Shown in pieces: positions 1,795 to 44,596 of a stretch of 64,000 nt of DNA. The notes beneath the pieces were generated by a model. The model was given only the letters and a program-made list of their open reading frames with translations. It was not told the origin of the DNA and did no database searches. Source of the stretch: Escherichia phage I29; sequence record ON286975; one strand, written 5' to 3'. The position numbers and the translations under genes were made by a program. The number at the start of each line of letters is the position of its first letter. Position 1 is the first letter of the stretch.

Positions 1795-2778
1795 ATGATG
1801 ACAAAGTTAACTCTTGAGCAAATTTTAACACTAAAGCAACAGGGATACACTAATAGACAAATTGCTCGTGAATTTTTAGGCCGTGAGTCACGTGAGAGCT
1901 GGATCCGACTACAGCTTAAACGTGCACAAGAGAATATGTCAGAGATTGTAGGAGAAGCAACGGAGCGCTTCCTTGAAGAGCACAAAGGCGCTAAAGTTTG
2001 GGTGTATGATACAGAGACATCCCCAACAAACGGCTGGTTCTTTGGGCACTATAAGACCAACATTCAAACCTGTGGTATTGAAGTTATGCCTTATATGCTA
2101 ACTTTCGCAGGTAAGTGGTTAGACAGCCCTAGTGTGGTTGACTGCGCTCTTCCCGATTACAAAATGTGGGATGAGGATATTCACAATGATCTCGAATTGA
2201 TTCAGGATTTGTGGTATTATCTGGATAAATGCGATGTCGCAGTAGCCCACAATTCAGGTTTTGACTGCGGGTGGGCCAACCAACGATTTGCATTTCACGG
2301 GTTGCCTCCAACAAGCCCCTACAAAGAGGTTGACACCCTTAAAATGATCAAGAAGGCATTCCGTTTGAATGCAAACACTTTGGAGTATGCATGCAAATAC
2401 TTCCAACTGGCCAGACAGAAACTGATTGATCACACATTTGAAATGTGGATCAAGTGTGTCCATGGCGATCTTGAGGCATTTAAACAGATGCGGGAGTATA
2501 ATGTTGGTGATATCCTGTCTCTGGAAGGACTGTATTTGCTGGCTCGCCCGTTTGCTAAGCAGCACCCAAACATGTCATTGTACTACCAGGACGAGGAGCC
2601 AAAGGTTCGTTGCCCACGCTGTGGTGGAGAACACCTTCACGAGGAAGAAGCTTTGGCATATACTCAGCTGAGTGCATTTAAAACATACCGCTGCGAAGGT
2701 TGTGGATCTGTTGTTCGTGACCGTAACAACATCCGTACCAGAGAAGAAATGAAAAACACCCTGATTCAGATAATCTAA
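1795..2778 (+). CDS. DnaQ-like DEDDh 3'-5' exonuclease with N-terminal HTH and C-terminal zinc ribbon
   Basis: Exo I YDTET, Exo III AHNSGFD (Hx4D); N-terminal NRQIAREF HTH-like; CPRCGG...CEGCG. Confidence 0.6.
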   Translation: MMTKLTLEQILTLKQQGYTNRQIAREFLGRESRESWIRLQLKRAQENMSEIVGEATERFLEEHKGAKVWVYDTETSPTNGWFFGHYKTNIQTCGIEVMPYMLTFAGKWLDSPSVVDCALPDYKMWDEDIHNDLELIQDLWYYLDKCDVAVAHNSGFDCGWANQRFAFHGLPPTSPYKEVDTLKMIKKAFRLNANTLEYACKYFQLARQKLIDHTFEMWIKCVHGDLEAFKQMREYNVGDILSLEGLYLLARPFAKQHPNMSLYYQDEEPKVRCPRCGGEHLHEEEALAYTQLSAFKTYRCEGCGSVVRDRNNIRTREEMKNTLIQII

Positions 2779-2786
2779 CAATTATA

Positions 2787-2808
2787 GGGAGGCTTGCGCC
2801 TCCCTTTT
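2787..2808 (+). terminator. intrinsic terminator hairpin
   Basis: gggaggc-ttgc-gcctccc followed by TTTT. Confidence 0.5.
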
Positions 2809-2823
2809 CCTTTTGGAGGCACT

Positions 2824-3642
2824 TTGAGCAAGAAAGAGTCCAACGACAAATATTACACAAACCCTGAGTATGCAGAATATCTTGTTGGTAAAGTAAAAGA
2901 TAAGTATGGAAATTGTGCATACGTTGAGCCTTCTGCTGGAAGAGGTTCTTTTTCAAAACTATTTTCAGAGATACTGTCGTACGATTTAGTACCAGATCCT
3001 GAATTTGAAGGGCCAACACCGTGCATTCAGGCAAACTTCTTGGAGGTGCACCCCAAGGCAGATGTCTTCATAGGTAACCCACCATTTGGCAAGAATTCAT
3101 CTTTAGCTTGCAAATTCTTCAACCATTGTGCATCATTGCTAGAGCTTGGAGGGGCCATAGCCTTCATCTTGCCACGGACATTTGAAAAAATATTTTTTGC
3201 AAACAAATTGGACATGTCGATGCACCTTGTCTACAGCGAAAGGTGCCCTAAGAATTCGTTTTTACTTAATGGCAAACCTTATGACGTGCCGTGTGTTTTC
3301 CAAATTTGGGAGAAAAAGGCGTGTAATAGGGATCCTGTAGAGATTGGAGAGAATAAGTTATTTTCTTTTAGCACTCCAGATGACTACGACTTCTGTGTAA
3401 GACGTGTTGGGTATAATGCTGGAAAAGTATTGGGGGATGATGACCCAAAATCTGAAGAATCGACATATTTCATAAAATCTTTAGTTGACGGTGTTGACAG
3501 AGTGTTTTCTGAATGCTATTCTTCTTTTCAAGAAGAAGCAGGTAAGACTGCCGGAATGAAGAGTATAGGCAAGAAAGAACTACAATACATTTTGGAGACC
3601 AGGTATGATCAAAAGCATAGACTTGACCAAAGAACTCACTGA
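2824..3642 (+). CDS. DNA N6-adenine methyltransferase
   Basis: Motif I EPSAGRGSF, motif IV NPPFG, YYT N-terminal motif; start placed at in-frame TTG after terminator hairpin and GGAGG (track ORF begins 2794). Confidence 0.65.
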   Translation: MSKKESNDKYYTNPEYAEYLVGKVKDKYGNCAYVEPSAGRGSFSKLFSEILSYDLVPDPEFEGPTPCIQANFLEVHPKADVFIGNPPFGKNSSLACKFFNHCASLLELGGAIAFILPRTFEKIFFANKLDMSMHLVYSERCPKNSFLLNGKPYDVPCVFQIWEKKACNRDPVEIGENKLFSFSTPDDYDFCVRRVGYNAGKVLGDDDPKSEESTYFIKSLVDGVDRVFSECYSSFQEEAGKTAGMKSIGKKELQYILETRYDQKHRLDQRTH

Positions 3643-7469: not shown

Positions 7470-9781
7470 TCACCAAGGTAATTAAAAGCAACGGATGTGA
7501 AGTGGCATTCGATCCAGAACGTTTAAATAAGGCAGCTATTTTCGGTGACGACGGTAACGGCAATTGGTCACACATTGCACTGGATGCATACAAACGACTG
7601 TATGATGGATGTACAACCAAAGAAGTTAACCAAGCTATCATAGACTCCTGTGTTAGCCGTAAAGACGAAGCACATTCCCGTATGGCTGGTCGTGTTCTTA
7701 TTGGTCAGATTTATAAAGAGGCTTTTGGAGGGTTTACAAAGATCCCTTCCTTACCATCATTTTACAATACCATGGTTGAGAAAGGGTATTGGGAGGATAT
7801 GGGCTATAGCTTTACCGAGCTAAACACTTTAGACGCTGTTATTGACCACAGTAAAGATCTCGGTTATGGCTATGCAGTCCTTAAACAGTTTCGCGACAAA
7901 TACGGGATCAAGGATACTCTTAAAGACACCCTGTTTGAATCTCCCCAGATGATGTTTATGGGGATAGCAATGGCTGTCATGAAGAATATGCCGAAAGAAC
8001 GTCGTATCAACGATGTTGTAAAATTGTACACTTATCTGTCCGACTTAAAGATCAATGCCCCGACACCGTACTTAAACGGGCTGCGCACAGGTAAGACAGG
8101 GTATGCATCTTGTTGTGTAATAAAAGCTGACGATACAGCAAAATCTATTGGTGTGGCACGTGAAGTTGCGTACACAATGACGGTTAACCAAGCAGGTATC
8201 GGCTACTATTTATCATCAAGATCTGCAGGCGATGGTGTTCGTGGTAACACTATTAAACATATGGGTAAGATTCCATATTATCGAGGTATTGATGCTGGGG
8301 TTAAGGAGAACAGACAACAATCACGTGGCGGTTCTGCAACAGTATCATTCCTTGCACTGGACCCGCAGATTGATGAGCTAATCCGTTTGAGAAACCCTAT
8401 GACTGTTGCTTCAAAAAGAATCAACACCATGGACTACTCCATCGGTATTAATAGGTCGTTTATCAACCGTGTGGCTAAGAATTTGGATTGGATGCTTGTT
8501 TCTTATAAGCACGCGCCTCAACTGCATGAGGGTATCTTCACCATGTCTATGGAGGAGTTTGATGCAGAGGTTGATCGTATCGCTAAAGATGACAGTATTC
8601 CTAAAACATGGATCCGAGCTAGAGATCTTGCTGTTGAGCTGATCACGCAGCGTACCGAGGTGGGAAGACTGTACGTATACTGGACAGATGAGATGAATAG
8701 ACATACACCTTTTAAAGATGTGATCTATTCAAGTAACCTGTGTGCAGAAATAGCTCTCCCGACAAAAGGCTATTCAGATATGCGTAATATCTTCAAGCAC
8801 GATGTTGATGATGGCGAAGTTGCATTGTGCTTCCTGTCATCTCTTGTAGCTGGAAGGGTTACCCCAGAGGAGTATGAGGATGTTGCATACTACACGGTGC
8901 TTATGATTGACAATGTTATGGAAATCATGACATATCCGTATGAAAATATGGAAAGCACAGTTAAAAAACGCAGATCCATCGGGGTTGGCCTTACCAATGT
9001 TGCACATTTTATTGCCAGCCACAAGGTTACTTACGGATCTCCTGAAAGTAAACAGCTCGTTCACGATCTTGCAGAACTTCACAGCTACAGCTTGCATAAG
9101 GCAAGTTTACGGTTGGCAAAAGAGCGTGGTGTCTGCGAGTGGATGCATAAAACAAAATATCCAGAAGGTTGGTTACCAATCGACACCTACAACAAAGAGG
9201 TCGATAGCGTGGTGAAAGATCCTTCTCTTAAACAGGATTGGGAAGGGTTACGTAAAGAAATCATTGAAAATGGTGGGCTACGTAATAGCGTTCTTGAAGC
9301 ATATATGCCTAATGAAAGCTCTTCGCTGGCAACAAACACCACTAACGGGGTTTATCCTGTCCGTGAGCACATTATCTTTAAAAAGTCGCCACAAGGGCAG
9401 GTGCTGTTTATCGTTCCTGACTATGATGAGTTGAAAGAGTATTACACCTCGGCTTGGGACGTTGATACTAACGACATGATCGATATGTATGCTGTAATTC
9501 AAAAATTCACAGGTCAGGCAATCAGCGCGGATTTATACATAGACTACACCAAGTTGAAAGATGGTAAAATTTCAATGAAGGAGCAGTTAGGGTACCTTAT
9601 CCGTGCCACTAAATTCGGGATGAAGACATGGTATTATTTAAACTCTAGGGTTGGTGCTGGTGACTCCTTGGCAGAGGAACTTCATGCCAAGAAACAGGCT
9701 GAAGATGAAACCAGAAAGAACTATCCTTTGATTGCAGATAGTTCAGTTGAAGATCCGTATTGCGAAAGCTGTGCACTATAA
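7466..9781 (+). CDS. nrdA: ribonucleoside-diphosphate reductase alpha subunit (class I)
   Basis: 771 aa; N-terminal ATP-cone; class I active-site NLCAEIALPT; TTG start after GGAGGA. Confidence 0.9.
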   Translation: MITKVIKSNGCEVAFDPERLNKAAIFGDDGNGNWSHIALDAYKRLYDGCTTKEVNQAIIDSCVSRKDEAHSRMAGRVLIGQIYKEAFGGFTKIPSLPSFYNTMVEKGYWEDMGYSFTELNTLDAVIDHSKDLGYGYAVLKQFRDKYGIKDTLKDTLFESPQMMFMGIAMAVMKNMPKERRINDVVKLYTYLSDLKINAPTPYLNGLRTGKTGYASCCVIKADDTAKSIGVAREVAYTMTVNQAGIGYYLSSRSAGDGVRGNTIKHMGKIPYYRGIDAGVKENRQQSRGGSATVSFLALDPQIDELIRLRNPMTVASKRINTMDYSIGINRSFINRVAKNLDWMLVSYKHAPQLHEGIFTMSMEEFDAEVDRIAKDDSIPKTWIRARDLAVELITQRTEVGRLYVYWTDEMNRHTPFKDVIYSSNLCAEIALPTKGYSDMRNIFKHDVDDGEVALCFLSSLVAGRVTPEEYEDVAYYTVLMIDNVMEIMTYPYENMESTVKKRRSIGVGLTNVAHFIASHKVTYGSPESKQLVHDLAELHSYSLHKASLRLAKERGVCEWMHKTKYPEGWLPIDTYNKEVDSVVKDPSLKQDWEGLRKEIIENGGLRNSVLEAYMPNESSSLATNTTNGVYPVREHIIFKKSPQGQVLFIVPDYDELKEYYTSAWDVDTNDMIDMYAVIQKFTGQAISADLYIDYTKLKDGKISMKEQLGYLIRATKFGMKTWYYLNSRVGAGDSLAEELHAKKQAEDETRKNYPLIADSSVEDPYCESCAL

Positions 9782-28673: not shown

Positions 28674-29000
28674 ATGGGTATACCGATCACTGTAAAAGAA
28701 TTGAATGAGCGTGATGCAGGCGGTCTATGGCCTGCACGAAAAATACGCTGCGTCCGTATGAAAGAGAATCTTGAACATCTTGATCAACAGATCAAGGTAG
28801 GTGATATTTTTGAGGTCTTCTATTCCAATCGTCGCAACTGGGAAACCATTCAGCCTTCTGGTTTTGTTCTTGCCAAACTTGACACCGGAGAAGTGATTAT
28901 CCCTGGGTTAGATATTGTCTTCGAAATTATCCAGGAGTGGGATCCGGATAAGATTAGATACGAAGAGTTATTCGGTAAAGGTATTATCAAACCTGTGTGA
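28674..29000 (+). CDS. hypothetical protein
   Basis: AAGGAGA RBS; 108 aa. Confidence 0.5.
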   Translation: MGIPITVKELNERDAGGLWPARKIRCVRMKENLEHLDQQIKVGDIFEVFYSNRRNWETIQPSGFVLAKLDTGEVIIPGLDIVFEIIQEWDPDKIRYEELFGKGIIKPV

Positions 29001-29008
29001 GGTGGATT

Positions 29009-29308
29009 ATGTCTACAAAGGCGGCTAAATACTCTTACATGCCATCAACCTCTGCAGAGGTAGACTTTAGTTTCGATGTGTTTCCACTGTTTGAGGTGGT
29101 TCTGGCATACCCAACAATACTATCTACTCCTGAATCACTTGTGCCTGTTAAGTTGCAGAACGCTATGCATTCTATGCACTACAACAATAAATGTAGGCAC
29201 AGATGGTGTCAGGACGAGGAAAAAGATTTGGATAGTTTGAGAGATTTTGACAGTCACCTTTTGACACCTTTCAGCTACTCCAACCTTGATAAGCCCTCAT
29301 GGGTATAG
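29009..29308 (+). CDS. hypothetical protein
   Basis: ATG 29009 after GAGGTGG. Confidence 0.45.
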   Translation: MSTKAAKYSYMPSTSAEVDFSFDVFPLFEVVLAYPTILSTPESLVPVKLQNAMHSMHYNNKCRHRWCQDEEKDLDSLRDFDSHLLTPFSYSNLDKPSWV

Positions 29309-29332
29309 CAAAATATCAAATTTAAGACACCT

Positions 29333-29359
29333 AGGACGCTCTGTGGCGTCCTTTTCTTT
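29333..29359 (+). terminator. intrinsic terminator
   Basis: aggacgc-tctgtg-gcgtcct followed by T-run. Confidence 0.6.
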
Positions 29360-29521
29360 ATCTGGTGCACGATTGCATACCTTGGACAGATAATCTCATT
29401 ACAGAGCGTTTAAGAGCTTCCTACAAACAAATCTCTCTTTCGAGCGTAGCGAGAACGCACGTCCGTTTTGACCCAAATCACCATACGCTCGGATTTTAAC
29501 CAAACCCTCGCGGCGTTTCTG

Positions 29522-29550
29522 TTGACACATTACCGATCCAGTGATAGTAT
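29522..29550 (+). promoter_or_regulatory. sigma70-type promoter (extended -10)
   Basis: TTGACA-17-TAGTAT with TG at -15/-14. Confidence 0.55.
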
Positions 29551-29582
29551 CCACACATAGTTTGTAGAATATGGAGTACACA

Positions 29583-29672
29583 ATGAGAACATTGTCCGAA
29601 GTTTTAGTGGTGATCCTGATGATCATTACGTCCATAGCGGCTGTTGCCGGAATACTCACGGGTGGAACATGA
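29583..29672 (+). CDS. small hydrophobic peptide, 29 aa
   Basis: MRTLSEVLVVILMIITSIAAVAGILTGGT; GGAG RBS; stop overlaps next ATG. Confidence 0.4.
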   Translation: MRTLSEVLVVILMIITSIAAVAGILTGGT

Positions 29673-29881
29673 TAAACACACATGCATCTGAAGAGACATC
29701 CAAAGGAGTGACTATATGTCCCTTGGCTGAGCCAGTGAAAGAGGAAAACTTAGATTCTGAAGATTCTCCATCTTCGCTCCAGGTAGATCCTGAGGCTGAT
29801 GACCTAACGTGGGAAGACATCGTAGACATCTGGTTCTCCATTATGCCTGAGCACGAAGAGTTCAGAGGTGGTAGACTATGA
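29669..29881 (+). CDS. acidic hypothetical protein
   Basis: 70 aa; coupled to upstream peptide ORF. Confidence 0.45.
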   Translation: MINTHASEETSKGVTICPLAEPVKEENLDSEDSPSSLQVDPEADDLTWEDIVDIWFSIMPEHEEFRGGRL

Positions 29882-30001
29882 AGCACCGAGCCCACACAGG
29901 TTCCTCATGCTAAAGCATGGCCTGAAGAGGCAAACGTGCATAATTCCTGTGCATTGTGACGTATAAAACCCGTTCACACTCTCATTTCCAGAGGAGATTT
30001 T

Positions 30002-30217
30002 ATGAAGATAGAAATATTTGGTGGAGCTGACAACACTCGTGGCCTGATTTACCTGGAATTCGATGAATCATACCTGCCAGAGGTGTTAAATATAGACTCT
30101 GTTGCTGAGGCTTTGGGAGTAAACCCTAAAGAACTCCACTCTTGTGCTGAGATCGATGGTTGGGAAGAGACCATGAACATTGATTTCAGTGAAGTAGAGG
30201 ATGAACCGCTGGACTGA
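30002..30217 (+). CDS. small acidic protein
   Basis: MKIEIFGG...; GGAG RBS; last gene of + cluster. Confidence 0.45.
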   Translation: MKIEIFGGADNTRGLIYLEFDESYLPEVLNIDSVAEALGVNPKELHSCAEIDGWEETMNIDFSEVEDEPLD

Positions 30218-30344
30218 CACACAATTAGCTGCCCGACTAAAGGGCTGGAAGCACCTATAACACATCTTTCAACTAAATTTCCTACCACCACAATCACTTA
30301 CCTCCCACACATGACTGTTTGCTTGTTTAGTGAGCAGTCATGCC

Positions 30345-30372
30345 TTGACATTCTTGCCTATCCTGATAAAAT
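30345..30372 (+). promoter_or_regulatory. sigma70-type promoter reading into the non-coding repeat region
   Basis: TTGACA-16-TAAAAT with upstream TG; no convincing ORF downstream. Confidence 0.45.
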
Positions 30373-30850
30373 TAAGTTCTTCTCTTTTCTTTTACCGAGT
30401 AATTCGGGTTTTCTGTTCTCTTCGGTTTGAAGGGGTATGGAGATACACCTGAGTGAACAGGGTGAACAACCGAACATTTGGCTATGGCATTAGCATGGCG
30501 AAGCGGACGGGTGACGAAAGAGGGGCCGGAGGACACCAGTCACTGCCATATGATATATGGGTGATAACCTGAAGAGTCTGAATAAGTGTTTAAGTACCAG
30601 TCAGAGGAAAAGGTGAATGGTAGCCGAAGGGGGAGGGGGGTTTCTTGTATCTTTAATTTGTATATTATGTATACACTCGTAAACCAATCTCATCTGAATC
30701 TGTTTACCACACAAAGTAGATAGGGACAAATATCACCTATTAAACTTGAATTATTTATAGAAAATACCACAACACCACTTAAGTCTTTGATTTTACACAC
30801 AAATTCTACAGATATTCAACCTCCATATTTAACATACTTGTAACATATTC

Positions 30851-31990
30851 CATACTCTACCTGTCTGATCAATTTCCCCAACCACATCCTCCATATTTTC
30901 CCTGTCTGTACTACCCCTGCCCCGCCGTGAGTCCCGTCATATCTGGCTTTCCAGCAAATATCACACCCACAAATATCATTGCCTGAAGAGGGTTTCATCT
31001 CATAATATATGCCTTACCTGAAGAGCGCTTCATACACCACGTAATTTTTTTTTTAATTGACCCCCTCCCCGCCGCTGGAGAGGTTGGCTTTTCCCACACA
31101 GACCTGAAGAGTCAGCCAGAAATATCTGAACAGGCCCAATTCTACCACGATTTTGACCTGACCTACAGGAGTGCTGCCAGGCGGACGAAATGGGAATCAT
31201 TCTCATTCTTATAACAATTCTCAAATATCGAGGCAGTGAGGCAAATTAATAGGTGAGGCCGTTCACACAATGGCACAACATTTGCAACCTATCTTGTGGG
31301 AGTGAATGAGAATACCTATCATTGTGAGAATAGTTATCATTACGGGCAATTTAACATAATACCCATTATGCGCACCGCTGGTGATACATACAGGGAAAAT
31401 ATGGAGGATGTGGTTGGGGAAATTGATCAGACAGGTAGAGTATGCATACTCTACCTGTCTGATCAATTTCCCCAACCACATCCTCCATATTTTCCCTGTC
31501 TGTACTACCCCTGCCCCGCCGTGAGTCCCGTCATATCTGGCTTTCCAGCAAATATCACACCCACAAATATCATTGCCTGAAGAGGGTTTCATCTCATAAT
31601 ATATGCCTTACCTGAAGAGCGCTTCATACACCACGTAATTTTTTTTTTAATTGACCCCCTCCCCGCCGCTGGAGAGGTTGGCTTTTCCCACACAGACCTG
31701 AAGAGTCAGCCAGAAATATCTGAACAGGCCCAATTCTACCACGATTTTGACCTGACCTACAGGAGTGCTGCCAGGCGGACGAAATGGGAATCATTCTCAT
31801 TCTTATAACAATTCTCAAATATCGAGGCAGTGAGGCAAATTAATAGGTGAGGCCGTTCACACAATGGCACAACATTTGCAACCTATCTTGTGGGAGTGAA
31901 TGAGAATACCTATCATTGTGAGAATAGTTATCATTACGGGCAATTTAACATAATACCCATTATGCGCACCGCTGGTGATACATACAGGGA
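30851..31990. repeat. tandem direct repeat, 594-bp unit x 1.9 copies
   Basis: 30851-31444 is repeated at 31445-31990 with identical sequence where compared; unit contains three CCTGAAGAG motifs and a T10 run. Confidence 0.9.
31393..31496. repeat. perfect 104-bp palindrome at the tandem-repeat junction
   Basis: gggaaaatatggaggatgtggttggggaaattgatcagacaggtagagtatg is immediately followed by its exact reverse complement. Confidence 0.9.
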
Positions 31991-32272
31991 TTGATAACAT
32001 GAGTTACAGTTTACACACATAACAATTATATTTCTTACTATTTGTGTGGGATATAGTTAGCAACCAATAGATTAGATATTGACCTGTAGACTTCCAACCG
32101 TCTAGACGTCTAAACGCCCACACAACAAGGCTTATACATACACAACTGAATGTAAACAGGGCCGCAAAAATGCTACCATACCAGATTGTAAATTTTCATG
32201 CAGCACTTGACAAAGAGGAGAAAAACTTGTCTGACATAATGGTGACACTGAACATAATTGACATGCCTGACT

Positions 32273-32372
32273 GTTTACGCTATCACTATTCACTCCCTTT
32301 ACTGTTTACATTCTCAATAGTTTACATGTCTAATAGTTTACATAGCTAACTGTTCACGCATAGATTGTTTAC
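32273..32372. repeat. iteron-like array of GTTTAC(A) motifs
   Basis: Six (A/T)GTTTACA-like sites; the last five are spaced 15-17 bp apart (32304, 32320, 32337, 32352, 32367). Confidence 0.6.
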
Positions 32373-32385
32373 TCAAAAATGATAA

Positions 32386-32664
32386 GCCATGCCATTCGTT
32401 TGCATGATAAAGATTAGCAAGTTAATAATCTTTCGCTGGCTATGCCAGGTGACTAGGTCACCCCTTCGGGCGTTCCTATGACATAATATAAAAGCAGGGC
32501 AACTATTAGCAGATCTATAGTTGCCTTGCTTGTTATGTCATGATTAACTAAATACAAGGCAACTATGATCTGATTAATAGATTGCAGACAAACTATCACG
32601 GGGGTGATGGTTACTGCTTTTATATTATGTCGCGACTCCGTCGCGCCATGCCATTCGTTTGCAT
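32386..32664. repeat. symmetric element: paired 20-mers flanking inverted repeats
   Basis: gccatgccattcgtttgcat at 32386 and 32645; palindrome ggtgactaggtcacc; inverted 19-mers tgacataatataaaagcag / ctgcttttatattatgtc; GGCAACTAT x4 in both orientations. Confidence 0.6.
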
Positions 32665-33280
32665 AGTTGCCTTATTGTTACAGATAAAATAATTGTATTG
32701 TTAATTATTTCTTATCTTTCTCTTAGTCATCTAATGATTCCAGTCAGTATAGTAATGTACAGTAAACATTAGACGACTAAAGATTTCTCTGTTTATGATA
32801 ACTCACCGTGATAATTTCAGACTGTTTACGAAAAATGTTGACACCTAAGCTGATTTATGCTATGCAGTTTACACGAATAATTATTTTATGCAGGTATTGA
32901 CTATTCCGTTATTCTATGGTTGGAATAAATACTTAGTAGGCTATAGAATGGCGAGCGTACGTAAATTCTGAGATCTGGCGGCTATAGTTATACTCGATTT
33001 TTCACGTAGAACACGCTTTTGTGGTTATGTAAGTGTATGACTTATAAAGATTTTTAGTTGTTGACAAGATACTGAAGATGTGCATCAGGTTAAATTTTAT
33101 GCAATAGCTGCATTACGTGCAATTTTGGAAGGAAAAACGTGTAAAAATGGCCCTGCTACCACACAATGAAAGATTATGCAATAGCTATTTTACATGTATA
33201 TTTGTACAGTGTGTGGGATTGATGGCTAGTCAATTATTCCACTTGCCAGGTAGGGCCGTTTATGGTAGGAGAAGAGCAGA

Positions 33281-33308
33281 CAAAAAGAAAGGGGCCTTTA
33301 AGCCCCTT
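33281..33308. terminator. bidirectional terminator-like hairpin
   Basis: ggggc-ctttaa-gcccc flanked by an A-run upstream and T-rich downstream; just 3' of minus gene 33327-33746. Confidence 0.5.
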
Positions 33309-33326
33309 GATAATTCAGTTAAGAAA

Positions 33327-33746
33327 TTATAATGATTCGTATATTTCAAAAATCCGATTTGCCAGGTCGTTACGGTAGCGGAATTTTTCCTCACGTTTGA
33401 TCATCAGATCTTTAAAGCCATATTCTTTAAGCACTTCATTAACTTTATGGCGGCACACCTTCATATTATCTTGAGCGTCACCAATAAACTTGTTGCTGTG
33501 GTGCATTGCTTTAATTTCTTCTTCCAGGACCAGGGCAACTACCCGGACCGGATCAAGCTGGTAGGCGGTAACATCGATGCGGCATTGTAGACGGCTTTTA
33601 ACGTCTGCCACCGGATATACTGCAACCTCTTCCCCGTCAACATTGACAATAACTAGTTTACCATCGATTTCGAATCCTTTCGCCGCCGGACCGTGACAAA
33701 AAGCGTTATCAAAGCTATATGCCGGATTATTAGATTTAATGTTCAT
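33327..33746 (-). CDS. hypothetical protein
   Basis: 139 aa; first gene of - strand cluster. Confidence 0.5.
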   Translation of the reverse strand: MNIKSNNPAYSFDNAFCHGPAAKGFEIDGKLVIVNVDGEEVAVYPVADVKSRLQCRIDVTAYQLDPVRVVALVLEEEIKAMHHSNKFIGDAQDNMKVCRHKVNEVLKEYGFKDLMIKREEKFRYRNDLANRIFEIYESL

Positions 33747-33890
33747 GGTGTTTTTACCTCTTAGTTAATTTTCTTACAACTTCCCTTCAAAAAAGAATAT
33801 AGCAAAACTGCCGATCCCTGTCAACCAAGGATGGCATAATTTTTATGTGATCAAGGGGCTTTATTGCCCCTGACCATGTAACTTGTTGTA

Positions 33891-34154
33891 TTATTTGTTA
33901 TTCATCCAGTTTTCCCAAGCTGCCTGATAATCTGCCTCACTGCGGCGGATCTCTTCTTGCTCTTCAAGCCGGATCTCTTCTTCCAGGTACCCCAAGATAT
34001 CGGCTTTTTTGGTCTGGCGTAACATCCAATCATCTTTTTTGCGAGTGAAGATCTTATAAGCTTTCTCGCAAACCTCTTTTTTGCTACCTTTCTGGACTTC
34101 AAGAACACGATAAGCCATATATTGAACTAATTTGAGCTGATCAAGACGTTTCAT
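33891..34154 (-). CDS. hypothetical protein
   Basis: 87 aa, charged/coiled-coil-like. Confidence 0.5.
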   Translation of the reverse strand: MKRLDQLKLVQYMAYRVLEVQKGSKKEVCEKAYKIFTRKKDDWMLRQTKKADILGYLEEEIRLEEQEEIRRSEADYQAAWENWMNNK

Positions 34155-34216
34155 GATGTTTTTCCTCTTTATGTGGTTTTTGTTTAGTGGGCCTTTTGGC
34201 CCGTGTCATTATCTTA

Positions 34217-34489
34217 TTACTTACGGCGGCAGAATTCAAGCGTTTTTAATTGATAATCTTCCTCAGCCTGGAGTACAACCGCCTCGATCATTTCGTTGGC
34301 ATTGTTGAAGCCATATCCTTTAGCGAATTCATCCGCACCACCTTCGTGATCATGTTCTGCGTTCATCGCTTCCACAAAATGGAATTCAAGATTATTGAGG
34401 TAGGGGCTTGATGTTCCGTCCTCTTTTTCAATGAGATCCCAAATAGCATTAAAACGTGATTCGACTTCTTGGTTAATCCAACTTGACAC
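34217..34489 (-). CDS. acidic hypothetical protein
   Basis: GTG start after AGAGGAAAAC; 90 aa. Confidence 0.5.
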   Translation of the reverse strand: MSSWINQEVESRFNAIWDLIEKEDGTSSPYLNNLEFHFVEAMNAEHDHEGGADEFAKGYGFNNANEMIEAVVLQAEEDYQLKTLEFCRRK

Positions 34490-34703
34490 GGCGTTTTCCT
34501 CTCTTCTGGTTGTGTGGGCACTTTTGCCCTTTCAAGATAAATGTTACCTCACCCCATGGCAGATGTCAACGGTTTTTATAGTTCTTATATGACAGGCAGG
34601 CCCGGTGATTGTCTCCCCCTGTTCCCAAGTGCCGCCCGTTTAATAAGAATAGCAAAAGGGGCCGAACAAGTCAACCCCAAAATCAGTACCAAAACACTTT
34701 TAT

Positions 34704-35015
34704 TTATACGGTCCGATCATTGGCCTTTGTCCAGGACCTGGCGATCCGTTTCCCGGTCACCTGGAACGGAGGCTGCATTGTGTGTAATGAGTCCAGCGTA
34801 AGGGAGGACCGTTTACGGCGTATCTTCAGGATCGCTAACGTATTGTCCATCTCACGGCCAGGTCCTGGGCGGTATGGTGTGCCTCCAGCGTTAAGGTTGA
34901 TGATCTCATGTATTGAGATCCGGCGTTGTTTTGCTTCCGCATCTTTGAAGATAGCCAGCGGAGGCGCTATGCGTTGCCGATACCAATCTAAAACGGTTGG
35001 CGTAATAGCGATCAT
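34704..35015 (-). CDS. hypothetical protein
   Basis: 103 aa; ATGA coupling with upstream minus ORF. Confidence 0.4.
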   Translation of the reverse strand: MIAITPTVLDWYRQRIAPPLAIFKDAEAKQRRISIHEIINLNAGGTPYRPGPGREMDNTLAILKIRRKRSSLTLDSLHTMQPPFQVTGKRIARSWTKANDRTV

Positions 35016-35203
35016 ATTTTACCCCCTATGTAGTCCGGTCGGTTTTTCTCTGTCATGCGCTTTAGCAATTCTTGAATAATCCCTATTGCGGTCAATGTCT
35101 CATCTTCACGCTTTGAGTCAACATAATCAGGATCGTTTATAACTTTTGTCTGATTATGATATCTCAATACCGCCAACACTTTTACAGCTTCATCAGTGGT
35201 CAT
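35012..35203 (-). CDS. hypothetical protein
   Basis: AGGTG RBS; 63 aa. Confidence 0.45.
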   Translation of the reverse strand: MTTDEAVKVLAVLRYHNQTKVINDPDYVDSKREDETLTAIGIIQELLKRMTEKNRPDYIGGKI

Positions 35204-35211
35204 TATCGCAC

Positions 35212-35346
35212 CTAAAACAGTAAGTTAATATATAACACCAGATCGCTGACCACTAGAACAGCACGGATCAGCACATACCTAACCATAAGGGGAAAGAGCG
35301 CCAATATTGCCACCACAATCCCAAAGGTGATGATTATCTTTCTCAT
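35212..35346 (-). CDS. small hydrophobic peptide, 44 aa
   Basis: MRKIIITFGIVVAILALFPLMVRYVLIRAVLVVSDLVLYINLLF; ATG 2 nt after upstream stop. Confidence 0.35.
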   Translation of the reverse strand: MRKIIITFGIVVAILALFPLMVRYVLIRAVLVVSDLVLYINLLF

Positions 35347-35348
35347 GG

Positions 35349-35633
35349 TTAACGGTTTACGTAAGCTTTACCGTTTACGGTGATGGGCAAATCTTCCAGG
35401 TCTGGATCTTCCTTAAGGTCGCGAGCAAGCTCACCGCACCGGACACCCTCGAATCCGTAGTACTCTGTTGTGCCGTCCTTAAAAGTTTTAGCGGCAAGGC
35501 ATAAGCGATAAGTAACCCCGATTCGATTGACGGCATGAATATCCGTTAGATTAACCTCTTTTGCCAGCTCTTTAGCCATTACAGGCGCATTAAGTCCAAC
35601 AACCAGGGCAACCACTGCGATCATCTTTTTCAT
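35349..35633 (-). CDS. secreted (signal-peptide) small protein
   Basis: N-terminal MKKMIAVVALVVGLNAPVMA|KE signal peptide, no lipobox; 94 aa. Confidence 0.5.
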   Translation of the reverse strand: MKKMIAVVALVVGLNAPVMAKELAKEVNLTDIHAVNRIGVTYRLCLAAKTFKDGTTEYYGFEGVRCGELARDLKEDPDLEDLPITVNGKAYVNR

Positions 35634-35724
35634 TGTGTCTATCCTCTTTCTGCTACGTTTAAGGCGGCGGTAACCGTCTGTTTATGCCTTGTTGGTTAAT
35701 TTTCGGGTATCGGTATAAATTAAA

Positions 35725-35940
35725 CTATGCTGTACGCTCAACTATAACAACGGTTTGAGGGATCTCACCTTCCACCACTATCAAGGCTTTTTTCTGCGTG
35801 ATGGATATCTTTACCCGTTGCAGCGTGGCGGTGAAGTCTTTCATTTCGTCACGTGGTGTTTTAGTGCAATACCAGATCTCAGGCTTGCCGATCTGCAAGT
35901 TGCGTAAAAATTCTGTTTTGCCTGTTTTGTTAGTGATCAT
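35725..35940 (-). CDS. hypothetical protein
   Basis: 71 aa on cluster strand. Confidence 0.45.
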   Translation of the reverse strand: MITNKTGKTEFLRNLQIGKPEIWYCTKTPRDEMKDFTATLQRVKISITQKKALIVVEGEIPQTVVIVERTA

Positions 35941-35949
35941 TTGCCAACC

Positions 35950-36054
35950 TCACCCGATACCGTTGGAAGATAAGATCACATTAGCCATGGTTGCAATCAG
36001 GCCAATACCCAGGGCAATAACCAGGATCACCGCATCAATTAATTTCTGTTTCAT
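35950..36054 (-). CDS. small hydrophobic peptide, 34 aa
   Basis: MKQKLIDAVILVIALGIGLIATMANVILSSNGIG; AGAGGAAAAC RBS. Confidence 0.35.
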   Translation of the reverse strand: MKQKLIDAVILVIALGIGLIATMANVILSSNGIG

Positions 36055-36144
36055 TTTGTTTTCCTCTTCTTGTTCCAGGTGGCGGACCATTCCACCGCCT
36101 TATGTATTATGCTTTGTAAGATGGTTGTTTGTTTTCAAACTATT

Positions 36145-36324
36145 TTAACGATAATCATCGTACGCTTTATTAACCTGGCGAATATAACATTCAAAAGCCA
36201 GATCAATAGATTTATATTCACGGATATACTCACCATAGGAAACCACATACATTTCTATAGCTTCCTCATATGCGAGGAGAATAGAATCCAAGCCTACGAT
36301 CTCAGTCTTTGCAATAATAGCCAT
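36145..36324 (-). CDS. hypothetical protein, 59 aa
   Basis: ATG 36324 after AAGAGGATAAAAATC; below track cutoff. Confidence 0.4.
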   Translation of the reverse strand: MAIIAKTEIVGLDSILLAYEEAIEMYVVSYGEYIREYKSIDLAFECYIRQVNKAYDDYR

Positions 36325-36395
36325 GATTTTTATCCTCTTTGTGGTTGGTGGGGCTTGCCCCTTTGATTTATATACTACAGTCTTATATGGTCATG

Positions 36396-36629
36396 TCAAC
36401 TATTTTCAAAAAATTTTTCTGCTGTGATATTTTTCCCGGTAGGATTGGCTACTTTTAAAATTCTATCATGCACCGGACGCCCGAAAGAATAAGATCCGTA
36501 TACAGTAAACCAATAATCGCCGTCAGGTTGTACTATTACCGCCGCATATGGTACGCCTTTTTCGTTTTTGCTGACAAAATAGATCACATTGCCATTAATA
36601 GCCTCAGCGCGTTTAATTTGTTCCATCAT
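36396..36629 (-). CDS. hypothetical protein
   Basis: 77 aa; AGAGAGG RBS. Confidence 0.5.
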   Translation of the reverse strand: MMEQIKRAEAINGNVIYFVSKNEKGVPYAAVIVQPDGDYWFTVYGSYSFGRPVHDRILKVANPTGKNITAEKFFENS

Positions 36630-36683
36630 GATGATTTACCTCTCTTTATTTTCATAATTGGGGCCTTTTCGGCCCCGCCAGGT

Positions 36684-36968
36684 TTATTTATTGATAGCGT
36701 GCAGCGGGAAAGGTACGCCAGGTTGATAGATAACTTTTACAACCTCATCAGGGCAAAAGAAATTGCAGAATTCACCCTGATAAGCCTCATCCTCTTTTAA
36801 TTCTTCATCAACATACTGGAAAAAGTAGTCAATGCTTGGATAATCCTGACCGGGATTATATTCAACCATGGTTAATAACAATTCTTGATCATTCCGTACG
36901 ATATGCATACCAGCTTTTAAGTATTTGGCTTCCATTTCTACTACATCGCCAACGGTAACAATAGCCAT
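36684..36968 (-). CDS. acidic hypothetical protein
   Basis: 94 aa; AGGAG RBS. Confidence 0.5.
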   Translation of the reverse strand: MAIVTVGDVVEMEAKYLKAGMHIVRNDQELLLTMVEYNPGQDYPSIDYFFQYVDEELKEDEAYQGEFCNFFCPDEVVKVIYQPGVPFPLHAINK

Positions 36969-37173
36969 GGTTTTAACTCCTATCTATCCGGTTAATGATT
37001 GGAGGCCTCACCGCCCCCGACACCCTTTATTATCCATATTGTAGGACTTGATGCAAGTACTTCTTTAAAAATTTTTTAAGCGCCTTGGGGGCCGCTGTAA
37101 CGCCAAAATAATAAAGGCTATGCAACCGCATAGCCTTTATGTGATTATATCGCTGCAGGCCCTGCCAGGGGCC

Positions 37174-37524
37174 TTATTTTGCATTCTTTCCTATATTGCC
37201 GCTACGGTACCAGCGTTTACGGTGAAAATGGTAATAATCACCATCGGCATTAAACATCAGATGATTTTCAATAACCAGCTTACGAAGGTGGGCCGGATCT
37301 TGTTCCATTCTTGCCAGATTCTGGCGGCTGTTACGTAAGCGGATAAATTCCATATTCAGGCCGTTGATTGCAGCATGGATGTCAAAGTAACCACCTTTGA
37401 GACGTTCACGCATGGCGTTAAGCTCAACACAATATACAGATTTCTCACAAATCAAGGTATTAGCCAGGGCGCGGACCTGGGCAAGGGGGTTAAGCTCATT
37501 AAGGTAATATAGTTTTACTTTCAT
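37174..37524 (-). CDS. hypothetical protein
   Basis: 116 aa, basic. Confidence 0.5.
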   Translation of the reverse strand: MKVKLYYLNELNPLAQVRALANTLICEKSVYCVELNAMRERLKGGYFDIHAAINGLNMEFIRLRNSRQNLARMEQDPAHLRKLVIENHLMFNADGDYYHFHRKRWYRSGNIGKNAK

Positions 37525-37541
37525 AAAATCACCTGCTGAAA

Positions 37542-37841
37542 TTAGTTTGAGAAAACATCGTTCACAATAGCGATCACAATGCCGCCCACCTTGTCACGGT
37601 CAACAATGCACAAATCACCATAGATCATGTGGTAGTCTGGATGATCTTTGACGGAATAGTCGATAAGTGTTTTCTTGTCATCCAGCTTACTAACTTCCAT
37701 TCTCATAACGATATGAGAATCATCAAAGGCATTATTCCGAAAAGTCATAACCTGACCGCCAGGGCACCCGGTGATTTCCACCTCCACGCCGTCTACGATC
37801 TGACCATCAAAGAAATAAAGATTATTAGCCTGGATAAACAT
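37542..37841 (-). CDS. hypothetical protein
   Basis: Start placed at second ATG (37841) 8 nt after AAAGGAG; track ORF begins GTG 37862. Confidence 0.5.
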   Translation of the reverse strand: MFIQANNLYFFDGQIVDGVEVEITGCPGGQVMTFRNNAFDDSHIVMRMEVSKLDDKKTLIDYSVKDHPDYHMIYGDLCIVDRDKVGGIVIAIVNDVFSN

Positions 37842-37885
37842 GATCATTACTCCTTTTTGCACTGATTATTTTAACAGGGTTTAAA

Positions 37886-37929
37886 TTTACTTTATTGATG
37901 GCCCTGGAGTCAAGGCCATCTAAAAATAA
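37886..37929 (-). repeat. 45-bp promoter/stem-loop repeat element, copy 1 (PeSL-like)
   Basis: On minus strand: TTATTTTTA-GATGGCC-TTGACTCCAG-GGCCATC-AATAAAGTAAAC; hairpin with TTGACT in the loop, TAAATT -10 about 18 bp downstream. Confidence 0.6.
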
Positions 37930-37932
37930 ATT

Positions 37933-41582: not shown

Positions 41583-41625
41583 GGTTTTAACTCCTATGCA
41601 TTAGTTCAGTGTTAACAGTATAAAG

Positions 41626-41669
41626 TTTACTTTATTGATGGCCCTGGAGTCAAGGCCATCTAAAAATAA
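41626..41669 (-). repeat. 45-bp promoter/stem-loop repeat element, copy 2
   Basis: Near-identical to 37886-37929; -10 TAAACT. Confidence 0.6.
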
Positions 41670-41671
41670 TC

Positions 41672-42222: not shown

Positions 42223-42251
42223 CTTCAAGCCTCCTTTTTAACTGGGATTAG

Positions 42252-42295
42252 TTTACTTTACTGATGGCCCTGGAGTCAAGGCCATCTAAAAATAA
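42252..42295 (-). repeat. 45-bp promoter/stem-loop repeat element, copy 3
   Basis: GATGGCC-TTGACTCCAG-GGCCATC with -10 TAAACT; one substitution vs other copies. Confidence 0.6.
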
Positions 42296-42297
42296 AC

Positions 42298-44072: not shown

Positions 44073-44169
44073 AGAACTCCTCGCATTTAATAAATTTAAT
44101 TAGCGTGCTAATTACCCTCCGTAACAATTTCCTATAAAACAGTATCCCATAAAATATTCCCATATAGAA

Positions 44170-44350
44170 ATTTTAAAAATCCATTTCTGAAAACGAAAAA
44201 TCGATTTCGTTCCCAAAAATTTCAGGTCGAGCTCCGGAACGATTTCCAGAAAATCCGATTCAGAAAACGAAAAACAGATCGAGTACTGAGAAATTTATCG
44301 AGAAAAATTTTCAGAAAATTCAATCTTTGAAACGAAAAACAGATCGAGTA
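44170..44350. repeat. degenerate tandem repeats (about 3 copies, 65-75 bp period)
   Basis: Cores GAAAACGAAAAA(T/C)(C/A)GAT... at 44188, 44262, 44328; copy 1 carries inverted repeat AACGAAA/TTTCGTT. Confidence 0.6.
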
Positions 44351-44596
44351 CCCGGAAAGCTGTACCGCAACCTCAAGATAGTGGTTAGACTATTACCATA
44401 AAAAGTCAAGGGTAAGTGGAGGAAGTTCTAGTAGAAGGATGTGAGCATGTGCGGGAAATCTGTAGTGGTGGTCTGGAATATGGTGCAAACGATAGGATGA
44501 GCGATTCAGCTTGTCGCGCCTACTCTGAAAAATCCATTTTAGTTTTCGATCCATTTTCTGATTTTCTAAGAATTTTAAAATATCTGGTCCGGTGAA

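Follow-up and report, generated by a model that had tools for sequence, protein, structure and literature searches.

A private 594-bp insertion with a perfect palindrome in the non-coding gap of a Vequintavirus sequence, a putative fold-back or template-switch product

Template-switch mutagenesis at quasi-palindromes is reportedly the subject of models by Ripley and Lovett, and a hairpin intermediate in the processing of T7 concatemers is said to have been described by Chung, Nardone and Hinkle in 1990. Replisomes of the T7 type switch strands at short inverted repeats (Nye & Tanner 2022, PMC9484634). Chimeras are also formed in strand-displacement amplification, more than 85% of these are inverted and they mostly show 2-21 nt of complementarity (Lasken & Stockwell 2007, PMC1855051).

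The Vequintavirus phages are rV5-like myophages with genomes of ~137 kb. Their terminal repeats have been published for EdH4, HdK5 and Gotham and are 458 or 459 bp long. The replication genes of rV5 are T7-like and comprise a family-A polymerase and a gp4-like helicase-primase (rV5 paper). In the same paper a gap between ORF163 and ORF164 is drawn as a 'non-coding' box; the authors, who were seeking an origin, noted a change of skew at its position.

The sequence analysed here is a stretch of 64,000 nucleotides from Escherichia phage I29 (ON286975), the whole of which is referred to as the window. The part of the window around the repeat described below matches ~120 phage records at 90-97% identity, all of them Vequintavirus or collinear with Vequintavirus though labelled otherwise. 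Nineteen unannotated 'Campylobacter phage' records (GenBank MG0656xx, host C. jejuni) are 91-98% identical across the region, and the host labelling of these records looks doubtful.

The equivalent of the rV5 gap lies at 30218-33326, between convergent gene blocks, and is 3,109 bp long, compared with ~2,470-2,600 bp in relatives. The last plus-strand gene before the gap encodes 71 aa (30002-30217), and the minus-strand block starts at 33327 with a gene encoding 139 aa (33327-33746). A PHROG search matched these flanking genes to phrog_12108 and phrog_12277 and found no family for the ORFs within 30218-33326. GC skew turns at the gap, which is 90-100% conserved at the nucleotide level among nine genomes.

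Within this gap a unit, A-B, is present twice in direct orientation on the plus strand; A denotes its first 55 nt and B the rest. Copy 1 (30851-31396) and copy 2 (31445-31990) are identical over 546 nt (100%, 0 mismatches) with a period of 594 nt, and identity between them ends on both sides, with no leftward extension. No further exact repeat of at least 30 nt is found anywhere in the 64-kb window, the repeat is therefore far beyond chance. The 48 nt between the copies, A' (31397-31444, plus strand), are the exact reverse complement of 30851-30898, and the normal right flank, R, begins immediately after copy 2. A perfect palindrome of 110 bp (31390-31499) is centred at 31444/31445, with 55-nt arms at 31390-31444 and 31445-31499 that go on imperfectly to 65 nt at 95%. 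As single-stranded DNA the palindrome folds with -67 kcal/mol (z = -19), and an ATGCAT (NsiI) site is created at its centre.

An earlier note on this DNA had described a direct repeat with a truncated second copy, three CCTGAAGAG motifs per unit and a run of ten T residues, all of which are present, the motifs at 30982, 31017 and 31103 and the run at 31046-31055. It had also taken the repeat to be non-coding and to lie in a gap of ~3 kb, which agrees with the lack of a PHROG match for the internal ORFs and with the 'non-coding' label on the rV5 equivalent. The perfect palindrome is at the centre that it gave, the length of 104 bp is replaced by the 110 bp above. An Rfam scan of 29000-35000 placed only eukaryotic microRNA-precursor models on the palindrome, all below their gathering scores; identity as a microRNA precursor was rejected, these sub-threshold matches being generic long-hairpin look-alikes.

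Alignment with relatives gives the layout L/A-B/A'/A-B/R, compared with the ancestral L/A-B/R, which amounts to an insertion of 594 bp. Just two adjacencies in the window are new, J1 at 31396/31397 and J2 at 31444/31445, and A', which they flank, is the one arrangement of sequence that relatives lack. J1, where B ends and inverted A begins, lies on a conserved 17-nt quasi-palindrome. One arm of this is the B-end, GGTGATACATACAGGGA (31380-31396, plus strand, with a second copy at 31974-31990), and the partner arm, TCCCTGTCTGTACTACC (30899-30915, also 31493-31509), is complementary to it at 14 of 17 positions. Both arms are found in essentially all of ~30 relatives. The last 7 nt of the GGTGATACATACAGGGA arm, ACAGGGA (31390-31396), are the perfect microhomology at J1; at a random join, 7 bases would match with a probability of ~6e-5. 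J1 is inverted and intramolecular, with its partner site ~490 nt away. As in template switching, opposite strands are joined at a nearby, pre-existing inverted microhomology, the two copies are identical, and apart from J1 and J2 every adjacency is that of the wild type, removal of the 594 bp giving back the sequence of an independent contig.

At J2 inverted A meets forward A at the same nucleotide, head-to-head and with no spacer. An origin of J2 from a restriction site or sticky end was rejected: the wild-type join of L and A (ATTC/CATAC) contains no palindromic site, and it is the new join itself that creates ATGCAT.

The physical ends of Vequintavirus genomes map close to the repeat. The equivalent of the direct terminal repeat (DTR), 458 nt long, lies at 31774-32231 on the plus strand, partly inside copy 2. 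Its left physical end is at 31773/31774 (GGCGGACGAAATGGG...) and its right end at 32231/32232 (...AAAACTTGTC); through the duplication the left-end sequence occurs also at 31179/31180 in copy 1. In the HdK5 record a repeat of 459 bp is found at either end and maps to 31774-32231, and the annotated repeat_region of Gotham maps to the same place. The YN3 record begins at the left-end base of the DTR and the bov22_2 record stops just before it. The duplicated unit begins 329 nt before the left end of the DTR and ends 241 nt short of its right end. The possibility that the unit is the DTR itself was rejected because its boundaries differ from the mapped ends.

Shigella phage CM1 (MK962749.1) contains, at locus 2535-3580, an exact 523-bp tandem duplication that starts from the conserved left terminus. 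It probably represents the two copies of the DTR, which would have stayed next to each other when the genome was re-opened.

The insertion is private to this sequence. The ~120 Vequintavirus records in the GenBank phage collection are all single-copy and none covers A' in register, and ~55 further independently assembled loci (Logan, ENA, JGI and NCBI) all have single-copy spacing. Among the 33 of these further loci that were checked by BLAST, none crosses J2, and four have a match spanning J1, apparently reverse-complement matches of arm A; in all relatives A' aligns solely as the reverse complement of A. The palindrome centre was not found by exact scans of IMG/VR, JGI metagenome contigs and GTDB genomes, and a strain-specific 27-mer had no match in these three collections. 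The junction region has no match in E. coli complete genomes and one match among plasmids, a plasmid-labelled phage record with a single copy. Two ORFs run across both junctions (109 and 94 aa), and look-ups gave no record of either.

Contigs of the same strain, 100% identical to the window, were found in several sequencing runs by exact look-up with strain-specific proteins. Once the 594 bp are taken out, window positions 28755-37915 agree with Logan contig SRR18842488_235 (132 kb) at 8,567 of 8,567 positions: the first 8,567 nt of the contig, reverse-complemented, match the window, and neither J1 nor J2 is present. With k = 31-127, the de Bruijn graph of the window has branches at several points, among them 30851, 30905 and 31396; the graph of the collapsed, single-copy sequence has no branch there. 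This k=31 contig runs unbroken through A-B, so reads across J1 and J2 would have been absent or rare in that dataset. The contig stops at another repeat, its end at 37915 falling inside a 62-nt repeat family. Judged from this contig, the insertion is not a fixed property of the strain. The two copies in the window are 100% identical and share strain-specific SNPs, the event is therefore very recent or not biological.

Another Logan contig (L046, SRR9161590) is 100% identical to the window and ends at 30899 in arm A; it was not counted as evidence of a graph branch. From the predicted branch points, a contig that approaches from the left should stop at ~30880 (k=31, in-branch at 30851) or at 30905, and the sister contigs of L046 end at 30380 and 29989. 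The end of L046 at 30899 looks like low-coverage fragmentation.

The same strain occurs in at least three SRA accession series (SRR61280xx, SRR91615xx-916xx and SRR188424xx), the first of which is human stool virus-particle DNA according to an SRA text search. Logan contigs L045-L047, L050, L052 and L053 match the window over 2.8-8.6 kb with an identity of 99.99-100%, and contigs L068-L071 share an exact strain-specific protein. These occurrences suggest a phage strain that is widespread or comes from a shared source.

On the comparison of sequences given above, the 594-bp insertion is a fold-back or template-switch product private to this sequence and not a functional element. A duplication or chimera of this type is a known kind of event, here in a known region. 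Two strand switches by a DNA polymerase would create an inverted-then-direct duplication. After copying B, the 3' end would anneal to the complementary short repeat in A, on the displaced or the same-sense strand; the new strand would then copy A backwards to its first base (A1, 30851), and synthesis or joining would resume forward through A-B-R. For J2 to form, either the template would have a 5' end at 30851 and joining would follow, or the polymerase would make a further, non-homologous switch, unless a fold-back read is responsible. The same chemistry could take place in an infected cell or in a tube.

We consider it moderately probable that the product is a chimera of a minority molecule or one made in vitro, by strand-displacement amplification or in the library, which was threaded as a loop by the assembler. 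An amplification or assembly chimera or minority variant is favoured over a genuine high-frequency duplication in the stock because an otherwise identical genome lacks the insertion, the copies show zero divergence and the strain is present in stool virus-particle datasets. Stool virus-particle samples are often amplified. Against a chimera, simple microhomology priming does not account for a J2 without spacer, which would need run-off, end-joining or a fold-back read. A k-mer artefact of SPAdes, for which the 55-nt arm would correspond to a common k, was rejected, since adjacency in a de Bruijn graph needs an overlap of k-1. The overlap between the B-end and A' is only 7 nt, J1 must therefore have been present in real molecules or reads. 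A comparable artefact is found in 0 of ~175 other assemblies of the locus, so there is no systematic locus-driven assembly error; it follows that one-off events in vitro and in vivo are about equally rare a priori. A genuine, heritable and very recent duplication in vivo, now at high frequency in the sequenced stock, is a possibility to which we give distinctly less weight. Here the T7-like replisome of the phage, or repair of a broken fork, would have switched strands at the quasi-palindrome. The junction signature is equally that of quasi-palindrome template switching in vivo, and the replication genes of rV5 are of the type whose replisome, in T7, makes such inverted-repeat switches (PMC9484634). 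In the window both copies and both flanks are cleanly resolved, and since the graph can be walked only with the support of read pairs or long reads, some data would seem to have spanned the structure. A palindrome of 110 bp is short enough for E. coli to tolerate, being below the size of lethality. These points are offset by the lack of the insertion in every relative as well as in the otherwise identical genome, by the zero divergence between the copies, and by J2, which without a spacer would need hairpin closure or blunt end-joining, for which there is no obvious enzyme here.

The remaining explanations are all of low probability. An artefact at the genome ends had been among the candidates of the earlier note, and of this the artefact stands as an option while the ends do not. 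If two DTRs had stayed adjacent in the course of circularising or re-opening a linear assembly, as in CM1, a tandem duplication of similar size would result, and the feature does lie within 330 bp of the left terminus; we regard this as very unlikely, because the repeat boundaries (30851-31396 and 31445-31990) match neither the left end at 31180 (equivalent to 31774) nor the right end at 32231, and the part of the DTR right of 31990 occurs once only. Such an artefact would also be a plain head-to-tail repeat of ~458-523 bp and could make neither an inverted A' nor the microhomology at J1, whereas here 546 nt of identity recur with a period of 594 nt around a 48-nt inverted insert. About as improbable is that the palindrome is a trapped natural intermediate of an rV5-like duplication of the terminal repeat, captured once by this assembly. 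The conserved quasi-palindrome that brackets the left cut site would then regularly prime fold-back synthesis during concatemer processing, from the arms at 30899-30915 and 31380-31396, as proposed for T7. A functional palindrome, whether a replication origin, a cruciform packaging signal or a protelomerase target like the N15-type telRL, seems more improbable still. It is long and perfect and lies in non-coding DNA at the turning point of GC skew near the genome ends, but it is missing in all relatives, in which the surrounding non-coding DNA is 90-100% conserved, and from the 132-kb contig of the same strain. The genus moreover has defined ends with terminal repeats of 458/459 bp, not hairpin telomeres of the N15 type. 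A functional cis-element would be expected to be conserved and the palindrome is private, so that the readings as origin, terminus structure and telomere-resolution site are ruled out for the palindrome itself. Of the functions put forward in the earlier note, the replication origin and the telomere-resolution-like site thus fall, neither the palindrome nor the duplication being found among the ~120 GenBank relatives, the ~55 assemblies (together ~175 related loci) or the identical-strain contig. The comparison with related phage genomes that it had proposed returns single-copy loci without the palindrome throughout. Its association with packaging or termini holds for the neighbourhood, where the DTR at 31774-32231 lies partly in copy 2, and not for the palindrome, which is not a conserved structure. 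Least probable of all, and hardly credible, is a miniature inverted-repeat mobile element, in which A-B-A' would be a 594-bp element with terminal inverted repeats of 55-65 nt inserted beside related sequence. The segments 30851-30915 and 31380-31444 do form 65-nt inverted repeats (95%) flanking 464 nt. Against this, A-B without A' is the ancestral resident at the exact place in all relatives, the 64-kb window shows neither a target-site duplication nor another copy, and the palindrome centre, made where the right end of such an element lies beside A, is absent from IMG/VR, JGI and GTDB.

Other features in and near the gap are conserved. CCTGAAGAG occurs at 11 sites in the window compared with 0.53 expected. 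Five of these are on the plus strand at 29921, 30568, 30982, 31017 and 31103, from 1259 to 77 nt left of the left terminus, and keep their relative positions and orientation in ~30 relatives despite indels between them. The last three are duplicated at 31576, 31611 and 31697, the other three copies in the window lie inside ORFs. These sites are candidate binding sites for a protein, such as terminase or another DNA-binding protein.

A nested inverted-repeat block at 32481-32631, ~250 nt right of the DTR right end, is nearly invariant. The outer stem of the block (GACATAATATAAAAGCAG / CTGCTTTTATATTATGTC) is 18 nt long and perfect. The block also has GGCAACTAT/ATAGTTGCC at four sites, and as DNA it folds with z = -9; across 28 loci it shows few substitutions and no clear covariation. 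Between this block and the DTR, 32232-32470 is the only poorly conserved part of the gap (51-81% column identity) and holds short TAGTTTACAT-like repeats.

A conserved non-coding block of ~340 nt at 30300-30640 has 99-100% identity in nine genomes, which elsewhere diverge by 3-8%. The conserved stretch is preceded by a sigma-70-like promoter (TTGACA-16-TAAAAT, 30345-30372, plus strand) that is close to the consensus and has an extended -10. The RNA fold of 30300-30640 is unremarkable (z = -1.8), and the Rfam scan of 29000-35000 gave no match to it. The fixed termini, the CCTGAAGAG sites and the blocks at 30300-30640 and 32481-32631, and not the palindrome, are candidates for packaging or replication signals.

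Two further repeats lie outside the gap. The 62-nt family is present at 37869-37930, 41609-41670 and 42235-42296 with 82-85% identity, it consists of a hairpin (GATGGCC...GGCCATC) followed by an A/T-rich tail, and Logan contigs of the strain break there. It looks like a repeated intergenic cassette of terminator or promoter type. At 44163-44358, where AT skew flips, there are three tandem-like units of ~57 nt with a period of 65-74, which are rich in GAAAACGAAAAA.

The result has value for curation, as a palindrome with a tandem repeat beside the genome ends invites readings as an origin, a telomere or a packaging signal, and comparison shows it to be private. If the insertion is real, the stock would have two copies of the left terminus (31180 and 31774) and three extra CCTGAAGAG sites. 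Terminal repeats of either 458 bp or 1,052 bp would then be packageable, a small natural experiment on the choice of cut site. Experiments in this region would best be directed at the termini, which are fixed, at the five CCTGAAGAG sites on one strand and at the block at 32481-32631, which is structured and invariant.

The known systems each resemble this locus in part. The T7 hairpin intermediate, as it is reportedly described, is likewise a fold-back in a phage with DTRs, and the short inverted repeat at which it forms lies a few hundred bp to the left of the terminal repeat. In T7 this structure is said to be transient and to form at a natural palindrome, whereas in Vequintavirus the wild-type sequence lacks a palindrome at 30851 and the fold-back structure shows no sign of recurring. 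Like the window, the CM1 record (MK962749) is a Vequintavirus sequence in which ~0.5 kb of this non-coding region is exactly duplicated in tandem. The CM1 repeat is plain head-to-tail and begins at the mapped left terminus, whereas the repeat described here is offset 329 nt upstream and includes an inverted segment.

The likeness to polymerase strand switching is closer. As in T7-type template switching (Nye & Tanner 2022, PMC9484634), the switch would have occurred at a pre-existing short imperfect inverted repeat, and as in quasi-palindrome mutagenesis a quasi-palindrome has been turned into a long perfect palindrome. Unlike in these systems, the arms are ~470 nt apart rather than adjacent, and the outcome is an insertion of 594 bp instead of a conversion of a few bases or a free hairpin molecule. 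A typical MDA chimera has one inverted junction with an intervening deletion, whereas here there are two junctions and a net direct duplication, and the second junction, J2, has neither spacer nor microhomology. J1 in turn resembles the inverted chimeras of MDA (Lasken & Stockwell 2007, PMC1855051): it is an inverted intramolecular junction whose partner lies a few hundred nt away on the same-sense strand, and its 7 nt of complementarity are inside the reported range of 2-21 nt.
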